A stretch of DNA of 61,148 nucleotides from Alphaproteobacteria bacterium UBA3637 (GTDB lineage: Bacteria > Pseudomonadota > Alphaproteobacteria > CAAHEQ01 > UBA3637): contig DFKU01000050.1 of NCBI GenBank assembly GCA_002373615.1, positions 1 through 61,148 on the forward strand, given 5' to 3'. The notes below the pieces were generated by a model. It did no database searches, had not been told where the DNA came from, and saw only the letters and a list, made by a program, of their open reading frames with translations. Numbering within the stretch: the first letter of the stretch is position 1; each line of letters opens with the position of its first letter. Below, in pieces: positions 9,682-36,228 of this stretch. The position numbers and the translations under genes were made by a program.

Positions 9682-11243
9682 GTATTTGCCCCTTCTTCTC
9701 GCATTTCTTCAGTAAACAGAGTGGCTTGATTTCGCCCATTTTCTTTCGAATGATACAAGGCAATATCTGCTTCTTTCGTCATTAAAGAAATATCTCCATT
9801 TTGGGTATTGGTGATCCCCAAGCTGATTGTAATGGGAACACGTGTTTGACCCGCCATAATAACAGCTTGTTCCACACTTGAGCGAATGCGTTCCGCCGCT
9901 ATTTTTGCCCCTTGAGCATCCGTATTACTGAGGAAAACAATAAATTCTTCCCCCCCAAAACGCGCAATAATATCCGAATCGCGATGAGTTTTATTCAATA
10001 CATCCGCAACCCGCTTTAAAACTTCATCCCCCATATCGTGCCCAAAAGTATCATTTACGTGTTTAAAATGGTCAATATCCAACATTATCATAGAATAAGG
10101 AATTTTTTGACGGATACAATTGGAAAGGGCCATCTGGCTCATCGCTTCGAACTGACGACGGTTATAAAGTCCGGTCAAGGTATCCGTAGAAGCCTCTTTA
10201 AAAAGCTTTTCTTCTGTTTGTTTTTGCGTAGTAATGTTTTGTAAGTTCATATAAAGAGCCAGCTCACCATCCAACTCTACAACACGCGCGGATAAATCCA
10301 ACCAGAGTATATCCCCTGTTTTAGGTGATTTCATTTTAACTTCAAAATTATCTACGATTTTCTTCTGACGCGCCATTTCAATCAATTCATCCCGTTTTTG
10401 GGGTTCTGTAAAATAATCTTTTAGGCGAAAATTTGAAATCCCATCTTTTTCCACTTTTAAAACAGAACATGCTATTGGATTAATGTAAATAACAGAATCA
10501 TCGAGCAATTTTGACACCAAAATAGGAAAGGGGGCAATATCCCAGAATTGAGTCCGGCGTTGCTTTTCTTTTTCAAGATTTTCTTCAAAATCAAGGCAGG
10601 TCACTTCCATAAACTTGATTTGAGCCATTAAGACTGAAAGGGAAACACCCCCAAATATAAAAATGGGAAACCAACCTGTTCCAGATATAAAATCAAATTC
10701 ACGCGCCAGATAATAAAGCGCCAGAACAAAAAAGGCATCCCCTACCCGGTCAAATAAAGAAGTTTTACCAACACTTTTCAACAAATGGAACGAAAAGCCT
10801 ACAACAACCCAACAAGCTGCCAATGACCAATAAATCAAATTGTATTCAGGAAAATAAATTTTAAATACATGAATAAAAATAACCTGAAGGACAAAAAAAA
10901 GAAAAACACAGGATAAAAGCGCAGACATTCCCAACGCACTGACCAACAAACTGACCCCCAAAAAAGAACACCCCAAACTGACTGTGATTCCTTGAATAAT
11001 TTCATACCCTTTAAATGAAATCAAAAAATTAGGATTTAACACAACCAATGAAGGTAATATAACCATCAAAAGGGTTCCAAAAGCCAAAATATAACAGGCT
11101 GTGGATATTAAATGAAACCGCCTTTTTTGGGTTGATCGAATAAAAAACATCCCAAAACATAAGCCCATAATCAAGTAGCCCAGACTTTCTAAGCCATATT
11201 GATTAAACCCTTGAACAATAATTTCAGACATTTCTTTAAACAT
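9678..11243 (-). CDS. Membrane-bound PAS-GGDEF diguanylate cyclase
   Basis: About 7 N-terminal TM segments, a PAS-like region and a GGDEF domain (DHFKHVNDTFGH...RFGGEEFIV). Confidence 0.85.
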   Translation of the reverse strand: MFKEMSEIIVQGFNQYGLESLGYLIMGLCFGMFFIRSTQKRRFHLISTACYILAFGTLLMVILPSLVVLNPNFLISFKGYEIIQGITVSLGCSFLGVSLLVSALGMSALLSCVFLFFVLQVIFIHVFKIYFPEYNLIYWSLAACWVVVGFSFHLLKSVGKTSLFDRVGDAFFVLALYYLAREFDFISGTGWFPIFIFGGVSLSVLMAQIKFMEVTCLDFEENLEKEKQRRTQFWDIAPFPILVSKLLDDSVIYINPIACSVLKVEKDGISNFRLKDYFTEPQKRDELIEMARQKKIVDNFEVKMKSPKTGDILWLDLSARVVELDGELALYMNLQNITTQKQTEEKLFKEASTDTLTGLYNRRQFEAMSQMALSNCIRQKIPYSMIMLDIDHFKHVNDTFGHDMGDEVLKRVADVLNKTHRDSDIIARFGGEEFIVFLSNTDAQGAKIAAERIRSSVEQAVIMAGQTRVPITISLGITNTQNGDISLMTKEADIALYHSKENGRNQATLFTEEMREEGANT

Positions 11244-11307
11244 TTTATCTCCTTTCGGGTTAGTTTAGCAAAAATTTTTCAAAAATCAATGAAAAAAAGA
11301 CTTTTTT

Positions 11308-11340
11308 CCCATTGCGAAATATGATTTTATGACCCATATA
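11308..11340 (+). promoter_or_regulatory. Candidate sigma-32 heat-shock promoter of dnaK
   Basis: CCATTGCGAAA ... CCCATATA resembles CCCTTGAA-N13-17-CCCCATNT. It lies about 55 nt upstream of the dnaK ATG. Confidence 0.4.
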
Positions 11341-11394
11341 GAATTTAGCAAATGAAAAAATGCGTGAAATTTAACCAAACAAAGGAGTTAAAAA

Positions 11395-13290
11395 ATGAGT
11401 AAAATTTTAGGTATTGACTTAGGAACCACCAATTCCTGTATGTGTATTATGGATGGCAAAGATGCCAAAGTATTGGAAAACCGCGAAGGCGCCCGTACGA
11501 CCCCTTCTATTGTGGCCTTTACAGGCAAAGGGGAACGCTTGGTCGGGCAACCAGCCAAACGTCAAGCCGTCACCAACCCGACAGGAACTTTGTATTCCAT
11601 TAAACGTTTAATCGGTCGTCGCTTTAATGACAAGATGGTTGAAAAAGATAAAGGCATGGTCCCTTATCATATCGTTTCCGGGGAAAATGGGGATGCCTGG
11701 GTGGAAGTGGATGGCAAAAAATATGCCCCCAGTCAAGTGTCCGCCTATGTGTTGCAAAAATTAAAAGAAGATGCCGAAAGCTATTTGGGCGAAAAGGTGA
11801 CTCAGGCCATTATTACGGTGCCAGCTTACTTTGATGACTCTCAGCGTCAAGCCACCAAAGACGCCGGTAAAATTGCCGGATTGGAAGTGCTCCGTATTAT
11901 CAATGAACCAACCGCTGCCGCTTTGGCCTATGGGATGGATCAGAAAAAATCAGGAATGATTGCCGTCTATGACTTGGGTGGCGGGACCTTCGATGTGTCC
12001 ATTTTGGAAATCGGTGATGGCGTGTTTGAAGTGAAATCCACCAATGGGGATACCTTCTTGGGTGGGGAAGACTTTGACGCCCGTATCGTGGATTACATGG
12101 CTGATGAATTTAAAAAAGAAAACGGCATTGACTTGCGTCAAGACCGTATGGCTTTGCAACGGTTAAAAGAAGCTGCTGAAAAAGCAAAAATTGAACTGTC
12201 CACCGCTACCACAACGGATGTGAACCTGCCCTTTATTACCGCAGATGCCACAGGGCCAAAGCATTTGAATATTTCTTTGACCCGCGCCAAATTGGAAAGC
12301 TTAGTTGAAGATTTGTTGGAACGCACTAAAAAGCCGATGGAAAATGCTTTAAAAGATGCCGGCCTCAGTAAATCCCAAATTGATGAAGTCATTTTGGTGG
12401 GTGGTATGACCCGTATGCCAGCTGTCCAAAAAATCGTAAAAGACTTCTTTGGGAAAGAACCCCATAAGGGCGTGAACCCTGATGAAGTGGTTGCCATGGG
12501 GGCTGCTATTCAAGGGGGTGTGTTAAAAGGCGATGTGAAAGATGTCTTGTTGTTGGATGTGACCCCGCTTTCCTTGGGTATTGAAACTTTGGGGGGCGTG
12601 TTCACGCGTTTGATTGACAGAAACACCACGATTCCGACCAAGAAATCTCAAGTATTTTCCACCGCTGAAGATGGACAAACCGCCGTCACAATTCGTGTGT
12701 TCCAAGGCGAACGTGAAATTGCACGGGATAATAAACTCTTAGGTCAATTTGACCTGGTGGGAATTCCCCCTGCCCCCCGTGGCATGCCACAAATTGAAGT
12801 CAGCTTTGATATTGACGCCAACGGGATTGTGAATGTGTCCGCCAAAGATAAAGCAACAGGTAAAGAACAATCCATTCGGATTCAATCCTCAGGAGGACTC
12901 TCTGATGCCGACATTGAAAAGATGGTGAAAGATGCTGAAGCGCATGCTGAAGAAGATAAGAAATTCAAGGAAGCCGCTGATGCCAAAAACCATGCAGATG
13001 CTATGGTGGCCTCAACCGAGAAAATGCTGAAAGAAAATGGGGATAAGATTCCATCAGCGGATAAAGAAGCCATTGAATCTTGCATCAAAGATTTGAAGGA
13101 TGCCATTGAGTCCAATGATACCCAAAGAATCAAGGACAAAACAGAAGCCCTTCAAAATGCCAGCATGAAAATGGGTGAAGCCATGTACAAGGCTCAACAA
13201 CAAGCTAACCCCAATCCTGCCGGAGATCAACCAGGGGAAGAAAAGAAAGAAGATGTTGTTGATGCAGATTATGAAGAGGTTAAAAAATAA
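11395..13290 (+). CDS. dnaK: Chaperone DnaK (Hsp70)
   Basis: Full-length 631 aa with canonical Hsp70 motifs ([17 protein letters not shown]). Confidence 0.97.
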
Positions 13291-24417: not shown

Positions 24418-25734
24418 TTATTCACATAAAGCTACAGGGTATGTTGAATACATCAACCATTTTAAATGTGGGTACATTCTTTCATAACCACTGGATTCTA
24501 TTGTTTGAGTATATCCATTAGTACAATCTTTTTCTAAATCCACATGGAATATTCCAATATAAGAACTTCCCAAATTTTCACTTTCCGCATTAAAAGCATT
24601 ATAAATCCATTTATCGCGGGCATTTACATAATCAGGAGTAACATTCGAACAATTTTCCAATGACCGCAATGTTTCTAATGTCACCAAATGCCCCTGATGA
24701 CCATCGATGGTTAACCTTTGACAAAAGTTTTTTGCAGACCAAGAAGTCATTCCCGCTATTGAACGAACAAAGTGTTTCTTTAAATTTTTTTCTTTATTGA
24801 TCCATGCATATACATCTGTGTATGTCGGTATAGGCTGACACGTTCCACGAGTAACTTTCACACATGTGTGAGAAGAATCACTATAATCCCCCTTTTGTTC
24901 GCAGTATTGTTCGGTATTTTCACACCATTGATTTGAGGTGCAATACGACACTTGGCGACACCCTTTGCTTCCATCACTGGACATATCGCAAACTTCATTT
25001 GATTCACAACAAGTATCACCACAAGGGGAACGCTGGTCCCCACAAAGACATTCCCCAGCAAAACAAGATGTTCCATCCATACATGAATCGCAACATTTTT
25101 CTTGACAAGAACCCGCATATTGTCCAACTCTACACCATTCAAATCCTGCAGCGCTACAGGAGATATCATTTATAAATTCCCCTGCGACAGGGTTGGTCGT
25201 CATATCATTATTATAAACCATCAAGAAAGTATTATCATCACCGCAGGTGGTAAGGGCTGTTTTAGGGCTATCCGTTGTTGATAATCTGCGGATAACTGTA
25301 TTATCCCCCAAAGTATTCAGGATATTCTGACAGATTTCTTTGTTCACACCTGATACTTTAATCCCAAATTGGCCTTCAGGTAAATTATCCGCTTTGGTAT
25401 AAACTTTTGCATCAAATATGGCATAACCCAAATTATTATTGGTAAATTCCGTTAAAGTTGGATTAGCATTATTTTGTAATTGAATTTGTGGGACTACCAA
25501 GGTCGCCCGTTTTTGGGCTTCATTGATGATGGTATTCGCTTTATTCTTATCCATCGCATTTTTAAAACCCGCTATTCCTGCAACAGACAAAACACCGATG
25601 ACAGCCAACACGCCCAGCATTTCGACCATGGAACGACCTGATTCTCCGTCATTCTGAGGGCAACACCCGAAGAATCTGATACCAGATCCTTCACTACGTT
25701 CAGGATGACGATATACTTTATAATTTTTACTCAT
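24418..25734 (-). CDS. Prepilin-type N-terminal domain protein, paralog 3, with Cys-rich spacer and a C-type-lectin-like C-terminus
   Basis: Start ATG at 25734 (RBS GGAAAAGG). The leader MSKNYKVYRHPERSEGSGIRFFGCCPQNDGESG|RSMVEMLGVLAVIGVLSVAGIAGF contains an in-frame MITE. Conserved head (FGIKVSGVNKEICQNILNTLGDNTVIRRL...FLMVYNNDM). C-terminus ...MTSWSAKNFCQRL..GHLVTLETL...WIYNAF...YPVALCE. Confidence 0.75.
   Translation of the reverse strand: MSKNYKVYRHPERSEGSGIRFFGCCPQNDGESGRSMVEMLGVLAVIGVLSVAGIAGFKNAMDKNKANTIINEAQKRATLVVPQIQLQNNANPTLTEFTNNNLGYAIFDAKVYTKADNLPEGQFGIKVSGVNKEICQNILNTLGDNTVIRRLSTTDSPKTALTTCGDDNTFLMVYNNDMTTNPVAGEFINDISCSAAGFEWCRVGQYAGSCQEKCCDSCMDGTSCFAGECLCGDQRSPCGDTCCESNEVCDMSSDGSKGCRQVSYCTSNQWCENTEQYCEQKGDYSDSSHTCVKVTRGTCQPIPTYTDVYAWINKEKNLKKHFVRSIAGMTSWSAKNFCQRLTIDGHQGHLVTLETLRSLENCSNVTPDYVNARDKWIYNAFNAESENLGSSYIGIFHVDLEKDCTNGYTQTIESSGYERMYPHLKWLMYSTYPVALCE
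25647..25710. mobile_element. Palindromic MITE-like repeat inserted in frame in the prepilin leader of 24418..25734
   Basis: On the minus strand: CGTCATCCTGAACGTAGTGAAGGATCTGGTATCAGATTCTTCGGGTGTTGCCCTCAGAATGACG. It has terminal inverted repeats and translates to HPERSEGSGIRFFGCCPQND. Confidence 0.6.
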
Positions 25735-25753
25735 TTTATTTACCTTTTCCCTA

Positions 25754-25986
25754 TAAAAAATTGTGCCACTTGGCGTGAAAGTGGCTGGATGTTCAAAACT
25801 ATTCCACAAGTGATAGTGCGGTATATTACTCCGCAGCGGCTTTTATTCTACCGCCATCCAACCAATTGGTTTTCCGGCAGCAAATTACGCATTTACTTTA
25901 GCGCTTGTGGAATGAGGTTTTGAACCCTCTGAACGGACGCCAACCCGTTCATGAAAAAGTTTAGCATAAAGAAAATCCTTTTGCAA
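25754..25986 (-). promoter_or_regulatory. Promoter plus structured 5' leader (copy C) ending in a terminator, upstream of prepilin-like gene 24418..25734
   Basis: On the minus strand: TTGCAA(25986-25981)-17 nt-TAAACT(25963-25958). Hairpin GAACGG/CCGTTC. GGTTGGATG (plus-strand 25855-25863) pairs with CATCCAGCC (25783-25791), enclosing two GAATA motifs. Terminator GCCACTT-N7-AAGTGGC (25765-25785) plus T-run. Confidence 0.5.
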
Positions 25987-26017
25987 CTTTAAAAATGCCC
26001 CCCCCTTAAAAAAGTGC

Positions 26018-26064: not shown

Positions 26065-26140
26065 GACCCTATCGTCTAGAGGCCTAGGACATCGCCCTTT
26101 CACGGCGGTAACGCGAGTTCGAATCTCGCTAGGGTCACCA
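26065..26140 (+). tRNA. tRNA-Glu (anticodon UUC)
   Basis: Folded by hand. Acceptor GACCCTA/TAGGGTC. D-arm GTCT-AGAGGCCTA-GGAC. Anticodon stem TCGCC/GGCGG with loop CTTTCAC. T-arm GCGAG-TTCGAAT-CTCGC. CCA is encoded. Confidence 0.92.
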
Positions 26141-26148
26141 AGAATAAG

Positions 26149-26171
26149 CCACCCAAGAGGGTGGATTTTTT
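26149..26171 (+). terminator. Intrinsic terminator after tRNA-Glu
   Basis: CCACCC-AAGA-GGGTGG followed by ATTTTTT. Confidence 0.75.
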
Positions 26172-26279
26172 GTGACCTATATGAGATTTGGCCGAGCAGA
26201 GTTCGTTCATTGAGCAAAAGCGAAATGGACGCCGAAGACGGTCCTAAAGGAACGAGGGATGAGGGATAATATCCCGAAC

Positions 26280-26306
26280 AATCTCGCTAGGGTCACCAAG
26301 AATAAG
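26280..26306 (+). repeat. 27-bp direct repeat of the tRNA-Glu 3' end (att-like duplication)
   Basis: AATCTCGCTAGGGTCACCAAGAATAAG is identical at 26122-26148 and 26280-26306. Confidence 0.85.
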
Positions 26307-26327
26307 TCCTTTATTTACAAGGGCTTT

Positions 26328-26516
26328 TTAAATTTCCAAAATTTTGCTCTCAACCCAAGAAATCAAAATAGGTAGCAGAAAAATATTTTTGAAGTTCTGA
26401 AAATAAACTCTAAATCTCCTTATGTTCCCTTTATACTTAATCCAGCGCTTTTTGCAGGTATTTGTCTGATTCAGGGTCACTAATTCCATGTATATAAAAT
26501 GGGACTGGTTCAACAT
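26328..26516 (-). pseudogene. Remnant of an IS5-family transposase C-terminus
   Basis: ...CKKRWIKYKGNIRRFRVYFQNFKNIFLLPILISWV resembles the YK.R..IE..F..LK.FRRIATRY.K....FL....LA.I.IW C-terminal signature. No upstream DDE region is present. Confidence 0.4.
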
Positions 26517-26698
26517 TGTCCGATAATTCAGTGGAAGAATTGCGAGATAAAACTTTACTTAAAAGCTGTACAAACAGATTAAAATATATCACATATATAT
26601 TTTCTAATCTTCGTTATTTTTTATACTTGATATATTATTGAGAATAAGATAGAATTGCTTTTAAATTCAAAGGAACCTTAAAACTGAAAAGGCGATTT

Positions 26699-27007
26699 AT
26701 GAAACAAGTCATTGAAAAAAATGATAAAAATGATTTTTATATGTCCTTTTTAAAAGAGGTGGGTTCCCATATGCGTGAATATCGAAAAAAACAGGGAATA
26801 ACACAGGCTCAAATGGCACAAAAACTGGGAATGGCCTTTGTTAGTTATAACAGTATAGAACGTGGGATTGTTGGGACAACCGTCAAAACACTTTACAATA
26901 TTTCCCAACTTTTGGGAGTCTCCCCTGCCAGACTTATGTGTGATAAAGACGAAATTTTGTTCTCCAAAGCGGATATTGCCAAGTTTTATAGTCAGGGGGG
27001 AAAATGA
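26699..27007 (+). CDS. XRE-family HTH regulator, first gene of the glycosyltransferase operon
   Basis: QGITQAQMAQKLGMAFVSYNSIERG. Its stop overlaps the next start (ATGA). Confidence 0.7.
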   Translation: MKQVIEKNDKNDFYMSFLKEVGSHMREYRKKQGITQAQMAQKLGMAFVSYNSIERGIVGTTVKTLYNISQLLGVSPARLMCDKDEILFSKADIAKFYSQGGK

Positions 27008-28173
27008 AAAAACTGTTATTTGATATTGATTTTTTATTGGCTTCTTCCGGAAAGGAAACAGGTATTTGTCGGGTAGCTGTTCAGGTTTTACGTGAATTAT
27101 TTCAAAGCTCAGAATACGAAATTTACCCATTGATTACATGTCCCACAAAAATTGATCCTGTTAAATATCTAACCTCAAAAGGAATAAAAATCCCCCAAAA
27201 GAATATAGTCTATTTAAAGTATTTAAAGGCAACTTATGGCGGGTACAAAACAAAACACAGGATAGCGGCAAAAATTCTGAAATTATTGTGTGGTGCAAAG
27301 TATAAAAGAGAGTTAAAAAAATATGATGAATATATCAGTATTTTTTCACCCATTTCCCCTTTGGTTTTTGAAACTGGTCTCAAAACAAAGCTGTTTATCC
27401 ACGATATGGTCCCTATTAAATTTTCAAAGGCCTGTAATAAAAAATTTGTTCAAAAGTACACCTATTGGATGAAACACATAAAGGCTGATGAATTTATTTG
27501 TGTTTCAAAGCATACTCAAAAAGATTTCTTGGAATTTAGACCCGATATCCCAACGGAGAAAACAATGGTCGTTTATTTGGCGGCTGATGAACGCTTTAAG
27601 CCGACACATGATGCACAAATTAAATCTAAATATGGCATTAAAACACCTCGCTATTTTCTGGGGGTTTCTGATCATAATCCACGCAAAAACTTTTCGCATC
27701 TGATTCAATCTTTTATTGAATTTATCAAAAAAGAAAAAATCCATGATATTTCTTTAGTTTTGGTGGGACCCAAAAAACATTTTAGTGAGATTGAAAGTTT
27801 GGTTGGTCATTTGACAGAACTAAAGGATAAGATTATTTTAACGGGATTTGTTCCTGATGAAGATTTGCCGGCACTTTATAGCGAGGCGGAACTTTTTATT
27901 TACCCCAGTTTATATGAAGGCTTTGGACTGCCTGTATTGGAAGCTATGCAATGCGGGACCCCCGTTTTAACAGGTGATAATACCTCTTTACCGGAAGTCG
28001 GGGGGGATGCGGTAGAGTATATTTCCGGAAAAGATATTTTGGAAACCGTTCAAAAAATGTTTGAGCTTCACCAGAATACCGCCAAGCGTCAAAAAATGGC
28101 TGCCGCAGGTTTGAAGCGGGCACAAAAGTTCAGCTGGACCCAAACGGTTGATCAAATTTTTAGATTAAAATGA
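27004..28173 (+). CDS. GT4-family glycosyltransferase
   Basis: EGFGLPVLEAMQCGTPVLTGDNTSLPEVGGDA (Glycos_transf_1 signature). Confidence 0.85.
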   Translation: MKKLLFDIDFLLASSGKETGICRVAVQVLRELFQSSEYEIYPLITCPTKIDPVKYLTSKGIKIPQKNIVYLKYLKATYGGYKTKHRIAAKILKLLCGAKYKRELKKYDEYISIFSPISPLVFETGLKTKLFIHDMVPIKFSKACNKKFVQKYTYWMKHIKADEFICVSKHTQKDFLEFRPDIPTEKTMVVYLAADERFKPTHDAQIKSKYGIKTPRYFLGVSDHNPRKNFSHLIQSFIEFIKKEKIHDISLVLVGPKKHFSEIESLVGHLTELKDKIILTGFVPDEDLPALYSEAELFIYPSLYEGFGLPVLEAMQCGTPVLTGDNTSLPEVGGDAVEYISGKDILETVQKMFELHQNTAKRQKMAAAGLKRAQKFSWTQTVDQIFRLK

Positions 28174-28185
28174 AAGAGGAATATA

Positions 28186-29457
28186 ATGAAATTGATGTTT
28201 GATGCAACAATTTTAGCAAGTGGTTCAGAAAAAAGCGCAGGGCGTAGTGGTATTTTTTTTACGGCGTATCAAATTTTTAACGAATTAAAACGAAATAAAA
28301 ATATAGATTTAATTTTTTATTGTCCGCCCACACAACAAATGTCTTTAAAAAAAACAAAAGAATTTCAAGATGTCCCCCTTTATCCTAAAGTGACATTATT
28401 TGACAAGTGGTATGGCTTTTTACGGCATAAAAAAAGGTCTTTTAAGATAAATCATAAGATGACTTTGAAAATACTTTGCCATTATGTTTTATTTTTTGAA
28501 AGTTGTCTTTTTTATATTCCCAATAAAATTATTAAAAAAATGCAACCGGATCCATCCCAATTAAATTTAGATGCTTTTTTTTCTCCGTGTAGGGCCATTC
28601 CGCCAGAAATCAATGCGTTAAACATTAAAAAATACATTTTATTACATGATACAATTCCATTGATTGTTCCCCAATATTTTAAAGATATGCAAAATAATGG
28701 GAGTTGGTTTTTGAAATTAATTCATTTTATAAAAGCGAACAAAGGAATACATTATTTTGCAAATTCAGGGTATACAAAATCTGATTTTTTAAAATATGTG
28801 CCAGAATTAACCTCAGAACAAATAACGGTAACACCTCTGGCTTGCTCTGATTCTTTTCATCCGTGTTCCAGGGAACAAACAATTAAATCCCTCAAAAAAT
28901 ACAATTTGCCGACAGATAAAAAATATGTCTTTTCTCTCTGTTCTTTGGAGCCAAGAAAAAATTTGATTCGTGCTGTTAAAACTTTTATTGAATTTATTCA
29001 GAAAAATAAAATTGATGATATGGTATTTGTTTTGGGCGGAGGCTACTGGGAGGATTTTATAAATAAATTGAGCACTGAAATTGCAGGGCTGGGTGATTAT
29101 AAAGACAAAATTATCAAGGCCGGCTATATTGATGATGAAGATTTGGCCCCGCTTTACAGTGGTGCTGAATGGTTCGTCTATACCAGTCAGTACGAGGGCT
29201 TTGGCTTGCCCCCCTTGGAAGCAATGGCCTGTGGTTGTCCGGTAATAACCAGTAACAATTCCAGTTTGCCTGAGGTGGTTGGGGATGCCGGTCTTATGAT
29301 TGATTGGGATTCCGATGAACAACATATCAAGGCGTATGAAGATTATTATTTTCACCCAGAATTACGAGAACAGAATCGCCCAAAAGGGCTTGTTAGGGCC
29401 AAAGAATTTTCTTGGGAAAAGACTGTCAATTTAATCGTAAAGGAAATGATGAAATGA
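28186..29457 (+). CDS. GT4-family glycosyltransferase
   Basis: [32 protein letters not shown]. Confidence 0.85.
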
Positions 29458-30974
29458 ATAATATTCTACACAAAAAACTGTTAAGAACTTATGGAGAGTA
29501 TTCTTCTCCTGAAATTTTTTCTTTTCACACATGGACGCAACCAAAGGTTTCATTGATTATCCCCGTCTATAATAAATATGAAATGACGAAAGATTGTTTA
29601 TGGTCTATCCTACAACATACAAAAGATGTTTCATATGAAGTCATTATCGCTGATGATTGTTCAACTGATGAAACGAAAAATATAGAAAATAAAATTACAG
29701 GAATTAAACATATTAGGACAAAGGAAAATTCCGGCTTTGGCGCAAATTGCACGAATGCAATTCAGTATGCTGAAGGAAAGTATATTGCCCTTTTAAATAA
29801 TGATATGCTATTTTATGATAATTGGCTGAAACCAATTATTGATACGTTGGAAAATGATTCCACTATTGGAGCCGCTGGCGGAACATTGATTAATCCGAAT
29901 GGAAAAGTCAGCGAGCTGGGGGGACTTATTTGGGGTGAAAGTAAAGCTATTCGTATTGGTAGAGATTGTACTTATTCTCCAAAATTAAAAAAACTTAATA
30001 CCGATTTTGATTATAAAAGTGGTTGTTGTTTAGTTTTAGAAAAAACTTTGTGGGATAAGGTGGGAGGCTTTGATCCAGCATTCAATCCTGCCTATTATGA
30101 AGATACAGATTTATGTTTTAAAATCCGTGAATTAGGTTTTAGAATCGTCAATGTTTTTGAATCACAAATCATTCATTTTGAAACGGTAAGCTATGGCGAT
30201 AAAGAATTTGAATTATCCGAAATTTGTCGACGCAATGGAAAATACTTTTTTAGAAAATGGCAAAAATTACTTAATAATCCCGACCGTATCAAAAAAATTG
30301 AAAAACGTGTGACGGAATATCAAAAGTATCAACAGAAAGAAATTTCTCATAGACTTTATTATAAGGAAAAATTACCAAATGGCAGACGAAATATTTATGT
30401 GTGTGGTCTTAAGGTATTTAGTTATAAAAAGAAAAGAAAAATGCAAGAATACGAAATATCTGAGGAGGTCATTTTAAAAGGGAATAACCAAGTATTTAAG
30501 GAAGCCTCGGTTAAAACTCAATTTCCAAATAGTATTGTTATCGGTAAGGGAACTCGTATTGGTCAAGATGTGACAATCAGTAATTATGAAAAAAACGGAC
30601 TTATAAAAATAGGTGAAAATTGTCAAATTGGCTGGAACAATAACTATTATGGACAAGGTGGCATTGAAATTGGAAATAATGTCTTGACAGCTTCATTTGT
30701 TTGCATTTTAACCAGTAATCATGGCTGGCAAGAAGTTGATCTGCCGATTATGGATCAACCCAGTACTTATAAAAAAGTCGTTATAGGAGACGATTGTTGG
30801 ATCGGCTATAACGTTATTATTTTAGCTGGGGTTCATATTGGTAAGCATGTGACTGTGGGCGCTGGCTCTGTTGTCACAAAAGATTTACCTGACTATTCTA
30901 TTTGTGCGGGCAATCCTTGCCGTGTCATAAAGAAATATAATTTTAACACAAAAAAGTGGGAGAAAGTATCATGA
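29454..30974 (+). CDS. Fusion of a GT2 glycosyltransferase and a hexapeptide-repeat acetyltransferase
   Basis: The ATG at 29454 overlaps the upstream TGA. The N-terminal half has VSLIIPVYNK...IIADDCSTDET...YEDTDLC (GT2). The C-terminal ~177 aa carry left-handed beta-helix repeats (IGDDCWIGYNVIILAGVHIGKHVTVGAGSVV). The junction peptide NIYVCGLKVFSYKKKRK sits between the two halves. Confidence 0.8.
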   Translation: MNNILHKKLLRTYGEYSSPEIFSFHTWTQPKVSLIIPVYNKYEMTKDCLWSILQHTKDVSYEVIIADDCSTDETKNIENKITGIKHIRTKENSGFGANCTNAIQYAEGKYIALLNNDMLFYDNWLKPIIDTLENDSTIGAAGGTLINPNGKVSELGGLIWGESKAIRIGRDCTYSPKLKKLNTDFDYKSGCCLVLEKTLWDKVGGFDPAFNPAYYEDTDLCFKIRELGFRIVNVFESQIIHFETVSYGDKEFELSEICRRNGKYFFRKWQKLLNNPDRIKKIEKRVTEYQKYQQKEISHRLYYKEKLPNGRRNIYVCGLKVFSYKKKRKMQEYEISEEVILKGNNQVFKEASVKTQFPNSIVIGKGTRIGQDVTISNYEKNGLIKIGENCQIGWNNNYYGQGGIEIGNNVLTASFVCILTSNHGWQEVDLPIMDQPSTYKKVVIGDDCWIGYNVIILAGVHIGKHVTVGAGSVVTKDLPDYSICAGNPCRVIKKYNFNTKKWEKVS

Positions 30975-31942
30975 TTTACGATTGTTTTACCTTTTTTAAT
31001 GAATTGGATTTATTGGAAATCCGACTGAATATCTTAAATGATGTGGTGGATAAATTTGTTTTAGTGGAAATGAACAGAACCTTCTCTGGGAAAAACAAAC
31101 CTTTGTACTATGAAGAAAACAAAGAACGTTTTTCAAAATTTCAAGATAAAATTATCCATGTTATTGTAACAGATTGTCCAGAATCAAAGGATAGTTGGAT
31201 ATCCGAAAATTACCAACGAAATTGCATCGCCCGAGGTCTCAAAAATTGTCAACCAGATGACGTTATTTTGATTTCTGATTTAGATGAGATCCCAAATCCG
31301 GGCTTAATCAAAAACTTGGATTGTTCACAAAAAATCTATCTATTGGAACAAAAAATGTACTATTATTTCATAAATTATTTAGATATTTACTCTCCATTAT
31401 GGCTCACAGGAACAAAAGTTTTGTCCTATCAAAATTTCTTACATGGGTTAGACCAAGTGAAAATCTCTTATTCCACTTTCCTGCCAGAAAGTTTAAATCA
31501 CGGGACTACAGCAAACAAAATTCGCTTATGGGATGGTGCAGAACATATTCAAAATGGAGGGTGGCATTTTTCATATTTAGGCGGAGTTGAGGCTATTGTC
31601 AAAAAGATTCAATCCTTTTCTCATCAAGAATTTAACACACCAACATATCTTGATAAGAACTTAATTTTAAAACGTATTCAAAATGGTGATGATTTATTTA
31701 ATAGGAAAGATCATAGATACTGGCCGGTTTATTTAGATCATACTTTCCCGCAATATATCTTAGATAATCAGGATAAATACAAAAAATTAATTTTTGAAAT
31801 TTCACCAAGACAACTTCTTTTAAGACGTATAAAATTGGTATTGAAGTCCATTTTAGCGTTTTTATACCATAAAGAAGAATCTATTGGACATCAAAAATTT
31901 TATCTGTTTGGAATCAAAATTTTGTCATATAAAAGGAAATAA
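30971..31942 (+). CDS. GT17-like (GnT-III-like) glycosyltransferase
   Basis: MIYDCFTFFNELDLLEIRLNILNDVVDKFVLVE...ISDLDEIPNP resembles Glyco_transf_17. ATGA start overlap. Confidence 0.6.
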   Translation: MIYDCFTFFNELDLLEIRLNILNDVVDKFVLVEMNRTFSGKNKPLYYEENKERFSKFQDKIIHVIVTDCPESKDSWISENYQRNCIARGLKNCQPDDVILISDLDEIPNPGLIKNLDCSQKIYLLEQKMYYYFINYLDIYSPLWLTGTKVLSYQNFLHGLDQVKISYSTFLPESLNHGTTANKIRLWDGAEHIQNGGWHFSYLGGVEAIVKKIQSFSHQEFNTPTYLDKNLILKRIQNGDDLFNRKDHRYWPVYLDHTFPQYILDNQDKYKKLIFEISPRQLLLRRIKLVLKSILAFLYHKEESIGHQKFYLFGIKILSYKRK

Positions 31943-31943
31943 A

Positions 31944-32849
31944 ATGTCATTTTTAAAAACACTTTATTCACGCAAAAAACTGTCTGATGGTCGTGTCAAA
32001 CAGAAAATATTCGGGATCTCCTTTAAATATCGCCCCAAAGATGGCCCTTATCCACCCGTAAAACATCCTAAATTAGGTGTTTCATACAGCGTATGGGACG
32101 GCGAAGAATTATTGGAAGGAGCCATTCGGTCTATCAGACCTGCTGTCGATTATGTCAATGTGGTATGGCAACGTTTATCGTGGCACGGAAAAGAATGTCA
32201 TCCTGATTTGGAAAAGTTATTGATTGACTTGAAAAACAAAGGATTGATTGATGAAATCATTTTCTTTGATTGTGATCCAAGCATAAATTCAAATGTGAAT
32301 GAATGTGCCAAGCGTAATTTGGGATTAGAGGCGGCCAGACAGGCAGAATGTACCCATTTTATGACCTTAGATACTGATGAATATTGGGATTTAGAGCAAT
32401 TTAAAATTGCCAAACAATATGTGTATGATAAAAACATTTCCCATTCTGCCTGTCCACATGTTTTATATCGAACACCGACTGTTAGACATTTAGACTATGC
32501 TGATTTTTTTATATCCTTTATTTATCGTATTGACCACGGTGAAAAATTTGTTAATGGATGTTTTGCAGATGAACTGCCTTGGCGCATGGATCCAACGCGA
32601 GAAATTCCTATAACCAAAAGAAGTCGTGTTTGTTTTTTGCACAATATTCTTTGTCATCATTACAGTTATGTCAGAAAAGATCTGATTAAAAAAATCAAAA
32701 ACACAGCCGCCAACCATAATGCCGAAGAAGAACAAAAATATCTAAACGAGTGGACATGCTCTGATACCCAGATGCAAGAACGTTTGAACTCGGGATATTA
32801 TGTCCCTGTTCCCAATCGCTTTCACATCAATATAGGAGAAGAAAAATGA
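31944..32849 (+). CDS. Putative GT-A-type glycosyltransferase
   Basis: Operon context and the DxD-like TLDTDEY. The family is not recognised. The ATG at 31944 has RBS AAAAGGAAA. Confidence 0.4.
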   Translation: MSFLKTLYSRKKLSDGRVKQKIFGISFKYRPKDGPYPPVKHPKLGVSYSVWDGEELLEGAIRSIRPAVDYVNVVWQRLSWHGKECHPDLEKLLIDLKNKGLIDEIIFFDCDPSINSNVNECAKRNLGLEAARQAECTHFMTLDTDEYWDLEQFKIAKQYVYDKNISHSACPHVLYRTPTVRHLDYADFFISFIYRIDHGEKFVNGCFADELPWRMDPTREIPITKRSRVCFLHNILCHHYSYVRKDLIKKIKNTAANHNAEEEQKYLNEWTCSDTQMQERLNSGYYVPVPNRFHINIGEEK

Positions 32850-33613
32850 CTCAGACACCACTATTGTCTATTGTTACAATTTGTTTCAATAATAGGGATG
32901 ATATAGAGCGCACCTGTAAAAGTATCGCTAGGCAAACATGGCATGATTTTGAATGGATTGTTATAGATGGTGCCTCAACTGATGGAACTTTAGAAATTCT
33001 AAAAAAATATGAAAAATTTATTGATGTTTTAATTTCAGAACCTGATACGGGACGATATAATGCAATGAATAAAGGCGTTTTAAGATCCAAAGGAAAGTGG
33101 TTAAACTTTATGAATGGTGGAGATGCTTTTCATCATCCAAATGTACTTCAAAACCTATCAGAATTTTTAAAAAATGATGAAGCTGATATTTTATACGGAA
33201 ATATGAATTTTATTACCAATAAAAAAGAACATCAAATTGTTACCTATCCTTTGAATATCACTGATCCCAATTATTTCTATGATGGCTGCATCTCTCACCA
33301 ATCCAGTTTTATCAAAAGATCATTATTTCAACAGTATGGTTTATATAATGAAAATTATAAGATTGTCAGTGATTGGGAAAAGTGGATAGTTTTTTCTTTA
33401 TTGAAGTGCAAATTTCGCCATATTAACCTTACCGTTGCAGATTTCTATGATGGTGGGATAGGATCATCTCCCTCTCCCGCACACATAAAAGAAAGAGAAA
33501 CGGTTCAACAAAGATATGGACTATCCCTCTCCATTCAAAACCAGAAATCTATAAATATAAAATATTATTTATTTGGATTTATCCCTATTTTAAAAATAAA
33601 GGAGCAAAAATGA
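32846..33613 (+). CDS. GT2-family glycosyltransferase
   Basis: LSIVTICFNNRDDIERTCKSIARQTWHDFEWIVIDGASTDGT. ATGA start overlap. Confidence 0.85.
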   Translation: MTQTPLLSIVTICFNNRDDIERTCKSIARQTWHDFEWIVIDGASTDGTLEILKKYEKFIDVLISEPDTGRYNAMNKGVLRSKGKWLNFMNGGDAFHHPNVLQNLSEFLKNDEADILYGNMNFITNKKEHQIVTYPLNITDPNYFYDGCISHQSSFIKRSLFQQYGLYNENYKIVSDWEKWIVFSLLKCKFRHINLTVADFYDGGIGSSPSPAHIKERETVQQRYGLSLSIQNQKSINIKYYLFGFIPILKIKEQK

Positions 33614-33804
33614 GTAAGATAAAATTGAAATTATTTTTTATCATTCCAATTTATGAGATAAAGGAGTCCTCAAACCGAAAAATTTGGAAAATTTTGGGTA
33701 TTCCGTTTCTAAAAAAGAAAATAAACAACAGGGGAACAAAAATTATCTATAAATTTTTAGGAATTCCTGTTTTAAAAATTAAAAGGAAATATCGCTATGA
33801 ATGA
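33610..33804 (+). CDS. 64-aa ORF made only of three copies of the GT 'junction' peptide
   Basis: KIKLKLFFIIPIYEIKE / KIWKILGIPFLKKK / KIIYKFLGIPVLKIKRK. It is coupled at both ends (ATGA at 33610, ATGAATGA at 33797-33804). Confidence 0.4.
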   Translation: MSKIKLKLFFIIPIYEIKESSNRKIWKILGIPFLKKKINNRGTKIIYKFLGIPVLKIKRKYRYE

Positions 33805-34684
33805 AAAAATTCCTTTAATCTGTGCAACGGATGAAAATTACGCACCCTTTGCATCTATAATGATGAAATCCGTTTTAATGCACACAAAATCTTTTATTGA
33901 TTTTTATGTATTGGATGGAGGAATAAAAGATAAAACAAAAAAATTGATTCAGGAAGATTTGAAGAAATATTCAAACCATGAATTACATTTTGTTGACATG
34001 TCTAAATTTAATTTATCCAAATTTCCATCTATACATCACTATTCAGTGAACGCTTTTTCCAGATATTTTATTCCTCTGATTCTACATGATTATAAAAAAG
34101 TATTGTACATGGATGTAGATATTATTGTAAGACGTGATATTACAGAATTATATCAACAAAATATGGATAATTTCCCAATTGCTGCTGTTTTAGAGGATTT
34201 TTACGAAGGAAATTATACTTATCTAAAACAATATATTTGGCCAAAATATACAGCGGGGGATCGTTATTTCAATAGTGGTGTTTTATTGATGGATATTCAG
34301 AAATTAAATAAAATGAACTTTACAGAAAAAGCTATTCAATTAACTTGTCAGATATATGATCGATTAAACACGGCAGATCAAGATATCTTTAACATTTTAT
34401 TTGAAAATAACTTTAAAATATTGGATTATCGGTTTAATTATATGCCAGATCATATCACTTTTTTGAAAGAGAAACACCCGGAAATAACATCTATAAACCC
34501 GGTTGTTCTTCATTATACAGCTCGAAAACCATGGAAGGCAAAAAGTTGTGCCTCTGAAGATTTTGAAAAGGTTTTAAATCAAAGCGTCTTTATGGAAAAA
34601 GTCGTATCTAAATATAAGACGTATGAATGTCTAACATATTATTTATTTGGATTTATCCCGTTTTTAAAAAAATATAAAATATAA
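33797..34684 (+). CDS. GT8-family glycosyltransferase (LPS/LOS glycosyltransferase type)
   Basis: ATDENYAPFASIMMKSV, MDVDIIV (DxD), NSGVLLMD, DQDIFN. Confidence 0.85.
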   Translation: MNEKIPLICATDENYAPFASIMMKSVLMHTKSFIDFYVLDGGIKDKTKKLIQEDLKKYSNHELHFVDMSKFNLSKFPSIHHYSVNAFSRYFIPLILHDYKKVLYMDVDIIVRRDITELYQQNMDNFPIAAVLEDFYEGNYTYLKQYIWPKYTAGDRYFNSGVLLMDIQKLNKMNFTEKAIQLTCQIYDRLNTADQDIFNILFENNFKILDYRFNYMPDHITFLKEKHPEITSINPVVLHYTARKPWKAKSCASEDFEKVLNQSVFMEKVVSKYKTYECLTYYLFGFIPFLKKYKI

Positions 34685-34699
34685 AATTGATATTATTAA

Positions 34700-34721
34700 G
34701 GGGAGCGATTTTCACTCCCCC
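34700..34721. terminator. Hairpin between the convergent GT8 and tail-fibre-associated genes
   Basis: GGGGAG-CGATTTTCA-CTCCCC. Confidence 0.55.
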
Positions 34722-34727
34722 ATTTAA

Positions 34728-35021
34728 TTATTCCTTGGGATACTTAGCTTTAATTTCGGCAATTTTTTGTTGCCATAGATTTGTGTTATTTACCTTATCC
34801 CAGTAAATCATATCTAATTGTTCAGCAATGACTGGATATTCAGCCAAACGTTTTTCTGCGTAGGTCGGCTCTGGTTTTATTGGGGTATATCCAGCAACAT
34901 ACCAAGCCCCATTATAGGCTTGTTCCACTTCCATTTGTGTAAAACCAGATGGAACATAATTTCCCAAAGCAACATCACATTGTTTTGTTGCATCATTTGT
35001 TATTTTGGCATACTTAAGCAT
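34728..35021 (-). CDS. Small phage-type protein downstream of the tail fibre (possible assembly or accessory protein)
   Basis: 97 aa. It overlaps the tail-fibre stop by 8 nt. The call rests on position only. Confidence 0.35.
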   Translation of the reverse strand: MLKYAKITNDATKQCDVALGNYVPSGFTQMEVEQAYNGAWYVAGYTPIKPEPTYAEKRLAEYPVIAEQLDMIYWDKVNNTNLWQQKIAEIKAKYPKE

Positions 35022-36027
35022 TTTGGGCTCCTTTCACCGGATAAAAAATCATAGAAAAGTAAGATGTTGTCTGAGTTGCTTGATAAAACATATCTTTTGG
35101 AATAGGAAAAAGCTTTGTTTCATTATTTGAACAGTTAAAATAATCTCCTGCCACTTCCGTTGGATTAGACATATCATTGTTAGCTGAATAATTTAAGACA
35201 AATGTAGCGGTTGAACCATTTCCTTGTCCTCGGATTGAAATCCAGCCATCTGATTCGGCTTGGTAAATTGTATCCAAAGATTTACTGACACCAGATGAAA
35301 AGTCCGGCATACTCAACGCTATAACGGCCTCTTTACCACCAGTAGAAAGGTTATCCATATCTTTATTAGCCTTTGAGGTAAGTATAGCTGTGGCTTCAGC
35401 TGCTTTTTCTGTGGCAATTTGAGCTTTTGTGGTGGCGATATCCGCTTTATCTGAGGCAATGGTTGCTTTTGTCGTGGCTGTACTGGCGGCGGATTCGGCG
35501 GCTGTTTTATATCCATTTAACGTACTTTCCAAAGCGTTTACCTCAACTGTTGAGTTTTCCAAGTTTGTTCCATCGGCATTCCATACGATGGCTTTTCCCG
35601 CACTGGGGCTTGGCAGGGTTAAATCCAAATCATTGTCGGTTGCATAAGGGGGCAAGACCATAGAGCGGTTTAAATTTTCCGCAATCTGTTGCTGGCAAGC
35701 TATTTGATAATCCAATTCGTCGTTCAGGACTTTTGCTCGAAGGGTCGAACCTTCTTGAAAATCAGATGTCCGTTCAATGGATAAGTTGCGTACGATAGTA
35801 ATAATTATCCCTGATTCTGGGGCTGATTCAAAGGCTACAGAGCCACCATCAGAATGACGTGCCTCTGAGACCGTATAAGTAGAGGTGTCTTGTTTTGTAT
35901 CCCCAAAATAAACCTCTATATCTGTTGTTTTAAAAATAGCAAACGGGAACTCGTATTCTGTCGAAGTTCCGTCTGCCGTATATTGTATCCTTGGCTTAAT
36001 ACCATAGATTTTTACATGTTCTGTCAT
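35014..36027 (-). CDS. Phage tail-fibre protein (T7 gp17-like N-terminal domain)
   Basis: N-terminus ...IQYTADGTSTEYEFPFAIFKTTDIEVYFGD... and FQEGSTLRAKVLNDELDYQIACQQQIAENL fit the podovirus tail-fibre N-terminal signature. It also has a central Ala/Thr/Lys coiled coil and a distinct C-terminal domain. Confidence 0.6.
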   Translation of the reverse strand: MTEHVKIYGIKPRIQYTADGTSTEYEFPFAIFKTTDIEVYFGDTKQDTSTYTVSEARHSDGGSVAFESAPESGIIITIVRNLSIERTSDFQEGSTLRAKVLNDELDYQIACQQQIAENLNRSMVLPPYATDNDLDLTLPSPSAGKAIVWNADGTNLENSTVEVNALESTLNGYKTAAESAASTATTKATIASDKADIATTKAQIATEKAAEATAILTSKANKDMDNLSTGGKEAVIALSMPDFSSGVSKSLDTIYQAESDGWISIRGQGNGSTATFVLNYSANNDMSNPTEVAGDYFNCSNNETKLFPIPKDMFYQATQTTSYFSMIFYPVKGAQNA

Positions 36028-36083
36028 ATTGTCTCCTATTATAATAAAAGTAAAAAAAGCCCCTGTATAAGGGCCTTGGTTAA

Positions 36084-36153
36084 TAAAAAAACACTGGATA
36101 CACCAGTGCCATTAACCGAAGGAGAGTATAGCATAAATTACAAAAAAAGTCAA
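36084..36153 (-). promoter_or_regulatory. Near-consensus promoter followed after ~10 nt by an intrinsic terminator, upstream of the tail-fibre gene
   Basis: On the minus strand: TTGACT(36153-48)-17 nt-TATACT(36130-25), then CACTGG-TGTAT-CCAGTG (36108-36092) plus T7. A weaker second hairpin with T7 lies at 36077-36052. Confidence 0.45.
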
Positions 36154-36228
36154 GGAAAATTTTCCTATAGTTATTTCTTGAACTTTTGTTAAAAATAAGA
36201 TACATTTTTATGCATAAAAGGAGGATTT

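Follow-up and report, generated by a model that had tools for sequence, protein, structure and literature searches.

The lipooligosaccharide (LOS) loci of Campylobacter jejuni, Neisseria (lgt) and Haemophilus are clusters of glycosyltransferase genes whose products add sugars directly to the lipid A-core. In Rhodobacter capsulatus, the head spike (rcc01079/01080) and the fibre (rcc00171) of the gene transfer agent (GTA) RcGTA are encoded outside its structural cluster, beside capsule and exopolysaccharide genes; the capsule is the receptor, and the receptor-binding and polysaccharide genes are co-regulated (PMC5026251; PMC10218006). A third system, FpGTA of Faecalibacterium prausnitzii, has been reported as a GTA-like element that is the first of podovirus type and the first from a commensal of the human gut; Faecalibacterium is the only genus for which a podovirus-like element of this sort has been reported (PMC12946183). 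A limited literature search yielded no account of a comparable T7-type element from Alphaproteobacteria. The window analysed here, a stretch of 61,148 nucleotides forming contig C63 of a metagenome-assembled genome (MAG) of the alphaproteobacterium UBA3637, contains at positions 26149–36153 an operon of glycosyltransferase genes that converges on a pair of phage tail-fibre genes. This region is probably the species' own version of a hypervariable surface-glycan locus of its bacterial family, joined to a fibre gene that has moved away from the other genes of a T7-like particle fixed in the chromosome.

The operon shares with LOS loci a compact, one-strand and almost purely glycosyltransferase layout, a low GC content, the absence of Wzx, Wzy and WaaL, and a content that differs between close relatives within conserved ends. 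It differs from them in having no clear phase-variable tracts, in its XRE-family regulator gene at the head, its GT17 gene, its uncatalogued GT-A family and the adjoining phage-type fibre; its LOS product is, moreover, only predicted. The resemblance to RcGTA is one of plan: in both, the structural cluster has no genes for replication or integration and is transmitted along with the host genome, and the receptor-binding genes stand apart from it, next to polysaccharide genes. The predicted parts, which here are of T7 type (portal, tail tubular proteins A and B, fibre), are unrelated to those of RcGTA, so that the particle is not a member of the RcGTA family. Neither the HK97-type capsid family PF05065 nor the portal family PF04860 had a match in the genome, and an RcGTA-type particle was rejected on that ground. 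With FpGTA the locus has in common, by description only, a gut bacterium as host and phage-derived particle genes divided between two loci, including a tail fibre, a receptor-binding protein and lysis genes; FpGTA belongs to another phylum, and the part of the report consulted describes no link to a glycan locus (PMC12946183).

The operon consists of an XRE-led series of eight coupled genes encoding seven soluble Leloir-type glycosyltransferases and one O-acetyltransferase domain, with the following features.

26627..26655, + strand: promoter-like site (TTGATA-17-TAGAAT) 5′ of the XRE gene, a consensus match only
26699..27007, + strand: XRE-family helix-turn-helix (HTH) regulator (HTH_3, E 2.7e-14), its stop overlapping the next start (ATGA)
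27004..28173, + strand: GT4 glycosyltransferase a, GT4a (Glycos_transf_1, 102 bits)
28186..29457, + strand: GT4 glycosyltransferase b, GT4b (Glycos_transf_1, 89 bits)
29454..30974, + strand: GT2 domain fused to a hexapeptide O-acetyltransferase (Glycos_transf_2, 95 bits; Hexapep, 49 bits)
30971..31942, + strand: GT17-family glycosyltransferase (PF04724, 120.9 bits against a cut-off of 26)
31944..32849, + strand: GT-A-fold glycosyltransferase of an uncatalogued family, 301 amino acids (aa), from structure model and Foldseek
32846..33613, + strand: GT2 glycosyltransferase (Glycos_transf_2, 84 bits)
33610..33804, + strand: mini-open reading frame (mini-ORF), 64 aa, with three copies of a tail motif
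33797..34684, + strand: GT8 glycosyltransferase (Glyco_transf_8, 161.8 bits)
34700..34721: GC-rich hairpin in the gap where the GT8 and p97 genes converge, by its sequence a likely two-way terminator

An earlier note on this DNA had listed an XRE gene start-coupled to eight operon genes, and the HTH_3 and Pfam matches uphold both the regulator and the calls of GT4, GT4, GT2-acetyltransferase, GT17, GT2 and GT8. Once three starts are reset (29454, 30971 and 31944, which the junction lengths assume), the genes are joined by ATGA overlaps, one 8-nt overlap and spacers of 1 and 12 nt. The highest 19-residue hydropathy reaches at most 1.5, and no product has a membrane-spanning segment. The GT17 match covers positions 75–300 of the 348-position PF04724 model, and the GT2-acetyltransferase scores 106.6 bits as a WbbJ-like protein, under the NCBIfam cut-off. 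The 301-aa protein, which the note had called a glycosyltransferase of no known type, has no match in Pfam or NCBIfam; its 79 homologues, all unnamed, keep an invariant DxD (D143, D145), and its predicted structure (pLDDT 92.3) was matched by Foldseek to SunS, ThuS, TarP and SpsA with probability 1.0, at TM-scores of just 0.4–0.47. On this model it is counted as the seventh glycosyltransferase, representing an uncatalogued GT-A-fold family. The closest relative of the GT2 protein (32846–33613) within the bacterial family is 44% identical (genome G022; G-numbers denote relatives, G000 the genome under study and C-numbers its contigs). Homologues of the XRE gene head glycan clusters in G019 and G003; PADLOC, run for anti-phage defence, gave only generic HTH matches for the XRE protein, and a defence system was rejected accordingly. 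Homopolymer runs in the glycan locus are limited to G7, C6 and G6, the longest being the G7 at 28000, inside GT4a; a C8 run lies at 25998, upstream of the tRNA-Glu promoter, and both the C8 and the G7 are too short to be called phase-variable from the assembled sequence.

Gene content at this locus turns over between species and the ends stay in place, the two GT4 genes forming a semi-conserved 5′ part and the six 3′ genes being unique. The comparison covered 80 genomes of the family from 16 genera, including 20 congeners. GT4a is 51–74% identical in 4 of the 20 congeners and present in 22 of the 80 genomes; GT4b accompanies it in the same four congeners at 44–68% identity. The nearest cluster-bearing relatives, G018, G019 and G008, retain both the GT4 pair and the fibre pair, with different genes in between. 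On the left flank, glgB–glgX is retained throughout the genus and the genes beyond it differ: at the same glgX–tRNA-Glu site G016 carries a glycan–fibre module in inverted orientation, G012 has no glycan genes and G011 has one glycosyltransferase gene, and in G001 a tRNA-Lys occupies that place. The relatives' clusters contain genes that we take, from our own reading of their sequences, to be lookalikes of rmlABCD, aminotransferase, LicD, phosphoenolpyruvate (PEP)-mutase and fucosyltransferase genes. The predicted variable, probably lineage-specific surface-glycan operon is thus borne out by the comparison; the same block was not present in all relatives, its content being unique and the type of locus family-wide. 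In G005 (contig C15, locus L014) and G064 (C7, L045) a GT4a/GT4b-type cluster lies away from the fibre and ends in a gene for an ABC protein of about 600 aa, presumably a fused MsbA-like exporter; G005 has two glycan clusters, of which one is fibre-linked.

No homologue of the GT17 gene was found in 79 other genomes of the family and order, and more than 7,700 relatives, the best 65–69% identical, were found in prokaryotic metagenomes. One copy is 65% identical in an organism whose DnaK is only 59% identical, which argues for horizontal exchange and indicates that the GT17 gene was acquired from outside the order. That copy stands alone at L061:10001–10972, with 25.8% GC against 33% for its contig; GT17 genes seem to be mobile between gut lineages.

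The MAG (1.11 Mb in 85 contigs, 96.75% complete) has a GC content of 40.9%, against 33.9% for positions 26149–36153. The operon itself (26699–34684, 32.9% GC) falls in the lowest 1% of the genome's 8-kb windows (mean 40.4%, s.d. 2.6). The earlier note had drawn an AT-rich island from the tRNA-Glu to the endA side. Its left border holds, the tRNA occupying 26065–26140 and the operon starting at 26699, as does the low GC of block and operon; its right border does not, since the fibre gene has a normal GC content of 40.9% and the compositional island therefore stops at about 34.7 kb. Four other AT-rich regions, on C66, C70, C41 and C84, were inspected as second glycan loci and contained no glycan genes. 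All other contigs found with this GT17 or EndA protein come from a few other samples and repeat the window at 99.99–100% identity, which makes strain-level comparison uninformative. In a search of the block against Rfam only the tRNA was recognised; to its left, the leader of a pilin-like gene (24418–25809) holds a sub-threshold sRNA-Xcc1-like match (25775–25863, − strand, 33 bits, E 0.012).

The convergent gene pair beyond the GT8 gene encodes a T7 gp17-type fibre and a small partner protein, p97, as laid out below with their leader.

34728..35021, − strand: p97, 97 aa, fibre partner, overlapping the fibre stop (phrog_9114, E 1e-10)
35014..36027, − strand: T7 gp17-type tail fibre, 337 aa (PF03906, 33.8 bits against a cut-off of 25.2)
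36056..36110, − strand: two terminator-like hairpins in the fibre leader, kept in relatives
36125..36166, − strand: fibre promoter (TTGACT-17-TATACT, TG), the region's best promoter match, overlapped by the palindrome AGGAAAATTTTCCT

The PF03906 match confirms the tail fibre in this pair, which was recognised earlier from its sequence. The fibre is composed of an anchor (residues 1–160), a coiled-coil shaft (161–235, predicted as a long helix) and a β-sandwich tip (236–337). It matches phrog_1640 (E 9e-20) and the Dpo31 tailspike anchor in the Protein Data Bank (E 7.8e-9), and Foldseek relates its anchor to the N-terminal domains of LME-1 (E 3.7e-5), Kp7, Kp9 and T7 gp17; the tip, of about 100 aa, gave only weak TNF- or jelly-roll-like matches. 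In its N-terminal anchor, coiled-coil shaft and C-terminal binding domain the protein resembles T7 gp17 and the podovirus tailspikes with PF03906 anchors (Dpo31/Dpo36, LME-1, Kp7, Kp9). It differs from gp17 in that its gene adjoins glycan genes outside any phage genome and is separated, by contig, from the tail tubular genes, and in having a small, hypervariable tip. Mean pairwise identity falls from 67% in the anchor to 54% in the shaft and 23% in the tip, and many residues of the anchor are invariant across 11 genera. Homologues of p97 accompany the fibre in most relatives (57–71% identical), and from its position p97 is a probable fibre chaperone. Two independent assemblies break in the fibre 3′ region and p97 (window positions about 34991–35086) and are 100% identical elsewhere, which may reflect strain heterogeneity at the fibre tip or a mere coverage effect; contigs L059, L060, L065 and L066 are the same sequence from other samples.

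Homologues of the fibre occur in 47 of the 80 family genomes and 11 of the 16 genera, mostly as a single match per genome. In about 20 mapped loci the fibre and p97 genes follow the 3′ end of a low-GC glycan cluster, with which they mostly converge; the content of the cluster differs from locus to locus, and the modules often have a tRNA gene at one end (Glu, Gly, Thr, Pro, Ser, Arg or Gln). Across 34 gut and rumen loci drawn from 185,579 species genomes, the 3′ flank of the fibre gave 101 glycan-type matches and the 5′ flank 13, a contrast that is partly circular because the glycan proteins used for comparison came from loci of a similar kind. The fibre homologues of distant Rhodospirillaceae and other free-living Alphaproteobacteria are encoded immediately behind homologues of the head–tail genes described below, away from any glycan genes, which indicates that the fibre moved out of the operon in the gut family.

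The remainder of such a particle is encoded elsewhere in the genome, in a head–tail–lysis operon at C79:1239–10748 that continues at C30:~11228–12159. On C79, a divergent gene for a LexA/CI-like S24 repressor (1239–1874) is followed by two small ORFs and genes for the T7-type portal (E 3e-123), a possible scaffold, the major head protein, tail tubular proteins A and B, a weakly gp14-like protein, a 93-aa ORF and the large terminase; the C30 continuation encodes a SleB-type endolysin and holin-like proteins. No fibre, integrase or replication gene was found in the operon, either here or in the 12 relatives examined, all 12 of which have the same order over approximately 10 kb within host flanks that vary between genera. 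The portal gene is present in 54 of the 80 family genomes, mostly in single copy, its identity falling with relatedness from 92% for the closest genomes to 55% for those of other genera, and the GC content of the operon tracks that of each host from 33% to 58%; the single-copy portal, the tracking of relatedness by identity and the tracking of host GC point to vertical inheritance of the operon. The genus patterns of portal and fibre nearly match, both being absent from one genus of 21 species. The fibre and p97 thus very probably, on genomic grounds, belong to this vertically inherited, fibre-less operon. The fibre, described earlier as an orphan in a gene pair closing the island, is not a stray prophage relic; it is a family-wide, vertically kept component, the partner of each species' glycan cluster.

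Similar control elements stand at the two loci. In all upstream regions compared, the fibre gene is preceded by a palindrome of the AGGAAAATTTTCCT type, conserved in 15 relatives, and a related motif (TAGGAA, four to six A/T, TYCYT) lies upstream of the head–tail operon, whose promoter is placed at C79:1935, beside the repressor gene. G042 carries the variant TAGGAAAATAATCCT at its fibre locus and again at its operon locus. Only three intergenic sites of the motif exist in the 1.1-Mb genome, at the fibre, at the operon and at C41:2943, and common regulation of the three is on this basis likely. At the third site (C41:1942–2960), a promoter and operator of the fibre type (TTAGGAAAATAATCCTTGAC...TATGCTATAAT) and a similar leader precede a 162-aa Tlde1/YkuD gene, presumably L,D-transpeptidase-like, and a gene for a 121-aa membrane protein. 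The C41 locus may be a further part of the particle regulon, for example in cell-wall entry or exit.

That the particle would behave as a GTA and not as a virus is judged an even call. The chance that the variable fibre tip would bind the glycan made next door is put at slightly under one half; physical linkage would then keep the receptor and the receptor-binding protein together upon exchange of either. A bolder and rather doubtful extension is that, throughout this family of reduced gut and rumen Alphaproteobacteria, the relocated fibre of a domesticated T7-like particle, an undescribed podovirus-type GTA, is welded to an LOS cluster as a lock-and-key unit that gates DNA exchange and is swapped whole between species. 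Matching of tip and glycan in similar-tip pairs is suggestive only. The four pairs with tip identity of at least 40%, which are not independent, share glycan genes at 0.19 against 0.02 for the rest. One cross-genus pair has tips 84% and anchors 64–67% identical, and both its members carry rml-like genes and a shared HAD-type gene. Most tips and most clusters are unrelated.

Several observations weigh against the preferred explanation of the region. Tip similarity and glycan-gene sharing were not significantly associated in rank-based Mantel tests (P = 0.15 for 16 loci; P = 0.25 for 25 loci), and the GT4a/GT4b cluster of G005 is separate from the fibre, which there adjoins a different cluster. 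In the head–tail operon, no small terminase and no T7 gp15/gp16-like ejection protein was recognised, the resemblance of p158 to gp14 is weak (E 0.0018, below cut-off), and the operator-like motif of the operon, TAGGAATTTTTTCTTA, is related but not identical to that of the fibre. The lack of an overall correlation between tip and glycan content, the unlinked G005 cluster and the generally poor synteny in the genus would also fit an adjacency without function, in which fast-evolving genes collect in recombination-prone, tRNA-flanked zones and the fibre may have another target, for example a protein receptor. This explanation is judged unlikely: the linkage survives many relocations and the same-site inversion in G016 relative to G000, it recurs in several genera, the glycan genes almost always lying 3′ of the fibre, and RcGTA, which is independent, shows the same pairing with a proven polysaccharide receptor.

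By itself, the operon is an ordinary variable surface-glycan locus, distinguished by a GT17 gene from outside the order and a new GT-A family; more interesting is the constant pairing of such loci with the fibre of a vertically inherited, fibre-less T7-like operon. The pairing suggests that abundant uncultured gut and rumen bacteria with 1-Mb genomes keep a phage-derived particle whose targeting protein is coupled to the sugar coat that it probably recognises. RcGTA, made of unrelated parts, is the only well-studied parallel. If the coupling is true, it would offer a testable genetic basis for the range of DNA donors and recipients in these bacteria, and linkage of receptor and ligand would have evolved twice independently.

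At the left end of the block, the duplicated tRNA end and a truncated ORF of a phage family form a separate small integration scar and are not the borders of the glycan block. The features are as follows.

26065..26140, + strand: tRNA-Glu (UUC), left landmark of the locus (ARAGORN; Rfam tRNA, 60.5 bits)
26122..26148, + strand: direct repeat copy 1, the tRNA 3′ end plus 8 nt, an exact 27-mer present twice
26228..26269, + strand: arm-like motif GACGCCGAAGRCGGTCC...GAGGGATAA, just 5′ of repeat copy 2
26280..26306, + strand: direct repeat copy 2, exact 27-mer
26304–26326: terminator-like hairpin after repeat copy 2
26440..26580, − strand: remnant of a 94-aa phage-family ORF, its 3′ half (47 aa, 83% identical to G000:C26:2635-2916)

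The duplication, noticed earlier, is exact over its 27 bp, where none is expected in shuffled sequence, and is consistent with the scar of a tRNA-targeted integration that has left no integrase: none was found, nor any other recombinase, among the ORFs of 26149–36153 in Pfam, NCBIfam and PHROGs searches. The two copies are 158 bp apart, lie both to the left of the operon and enclose just 131 bp, with the glycosyltransferase genes outside, so that they do not delimit the block as an integrated element; a search of the window for a third copy, allowing up to three mismatches, found none. The fragment at 26440–26580, previously taken for an IS5-like remnant, corresponds to the C-terminal 47 aa of a 94-aa ORF, intact at C26:2635–2916 beside and converging on a tRNA-Val gene, whose family has no known function (phrog_11043, E 8.8e-10). 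No transposase signal was found for it in Pfam at E up to 1, and an IS5 remnant (DDE transposase) was rejected in favour of the phrog_11043 homology. A second duplicated tRNA 3′ end occurs at tRNA-Gly(CCC) (C9:35171–35520), 328 nt downstream of the gene and likewise preceded by the GACGCCGAAGRCGGTCC...GAGGGATAA motif; this is the tRNA that adjoins the fibre gene in two congeners. The two duplications are read as probable scars from one family of tRNA-targeting elements.

The tRNA adjacency, the 27-bp duplication, the truncated phage-family ORF and the low GC would suit a classical tRNA-integrated island or prophage remnant, in which a podovirus integrated at tRNA-Glu, carrying serotype-conversion genes by its tailspike, and the rest decayed; the relatives' modules, too, very often abut tRNA genes. 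The order of tRNA, glycan genes and fibre recalls the tailspike–gtr–att order of P22-type phages, and with the serotype-conversion modules of P22, Sf6 and SfV the locus shares this layout only, glycan genes between a podovirus receptor-binding gene and a tRNA gene. Here, however, there is no integrase, the repeats do not flank the block, and the enzymes, all without transmembrane segments, include no GtrA-, GtrB- or Oac-type membrane proteins and no membrane acyltransferase; the genes serve to assemble a glycan, not to modify an O antigen already present. A serotype-conversion module proper (gtrABC/oac) was rejected, with no such Pfam match and a hydropathy of at most 1.5. The head–tail operon is intact elsewhere in the genome, and the conserved anchor, the single copy and the genus pattern matching the operon argue for selection and vertical descent, not decay. 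A prophage remnant is thus distinctly unlikely, and a family-type glycan locus joined to a vertically kept fibre is preferred.

The operon somewhat more probably than otherwise builds an LOS-type outer glycan, stepwise on the lipid A-core. Genes for LpxC, for the Kdo transferase WaaA and for two GT9 proteins (the heptosyltransferase family), all above cut-offs, are present in the genome, together with an ORF weakly similar to a cytidylyltransferase-type protein, which we take to be HldE-like. Few glycosyltransferase-like ORFs lie outside the island. The single genomic match to PF00953 is a 358-aa open frame that is read as a candidate MraY. No match was found in the 96.75%-complete MAG for Wzy_C/WaaL, Bac_transf (the initiating phosphoglycosyl transferase), Wzx, KpsC/S or Wza, ABC-2 exporters of the Wzm/Wzt type not having been searched; these include the flippase and polymerase genes that the earlier note had proposed looking for elsewhere, which were not matched. 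Since lipid A, Kdo and heptose genes are present and WaaL/Wzy, Wzx, the initiating transferase, KpsC/S and Wza were not found, an LOS-type glycan is the most likely product, and of the products first considered the LOS or lipopolysaccharide (LPS) outer core stands as the best candidate. The operon enzymes would, with the same modest preference, act at the cytoplasmic face of the inner membrane and extend lipid A–Kdo–heptose directly; the finished glycan would, again by a slight preference, be flipped and exported by the general LPS route, with no undecaprenyl carrier, Wzx/Wzy or WaaL. Against such a product stands the fact that the acceptor, be it LOS, another glycolipid or protein, is deduced from absences in a MAG of 85 contigs.

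Proteins could instead be the acceptors, with the organism's abundant pilin-like or Ser/Thr/Ala-rich surface proteins being glycosylated in the cytoplasm before export in a manner resembling the GtfA/GtfB-type O-glycosylation of serine-rich adhesins. The pilin-like gene lies immediately to the left of tRNA-Glu, and the lack of a detected undecaprenyl-linked pathway is compatible with any cytoplasmic mechanism. The tandem GT4 proteins weakly match SdgA/SdgB and PglJ (NCBIfam, E 1e-9 to 1e-13, far under cut-offs), but these matches reflect generic GT4 similarity. T7-type fibres usually bind LPS, a membrane-tail motif on six of the eight products suits a lipid-linked acceptor, and the relatives' rmlABCD-, LicD-, PEP-mutase- and fucosyltransferase-like genes are typical of LOS and capsular polysaccharide loci; protein glycosylation is accordingly held to be highly unlikely. 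A capsule-like or exopolysaccharide polymer deserves very little credence: seven transferases and an O-acetyltransferase could supply a repeat unit, and there is weak WcaE, WcaF and WbbJ similarity, but matches to a polymerase, a flippase, an initiating transferase, KpsC/S and a Wza-type exporter were all lacking, within the completeness and the search scope given above.

The tail motif that fits an LOS-type product is short, basic and hydrophobic (type LFGFIPILKIK; LFGxxxLK), and is a presumptive membrane tether. It stands at the C terminus of the GT17, GT2 and GT8 proteins and at the N terminus of the new GT-A protein; internally, as 'YVCGLKVFSYKKKRK', it marks the domain junction at which GT2 and acetyltransferase are fused. 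The mini-ORF consists of three copies, KLFFIIPIYEIK, KILGIPFLKKK and KFLGIPVLKIKRK, and has a 54% identical counterpart at the same position in G005. Of the 1,212 ORFs of the genome, 5 contain the motif in the form LFG(I/F)x(I/V)LK(I)K, 4 of these within the operon, and in relatives the tail motif occurs in 10 of 111 glycan-cluster proteins against 1 of 307 other proteins. In the GT2 and GT8 genes, the 39-nt stretches that encode the motif (33558–33596 and 34632–34670) share 92% identity, which makes it a possible crossover point for cassette exchange.

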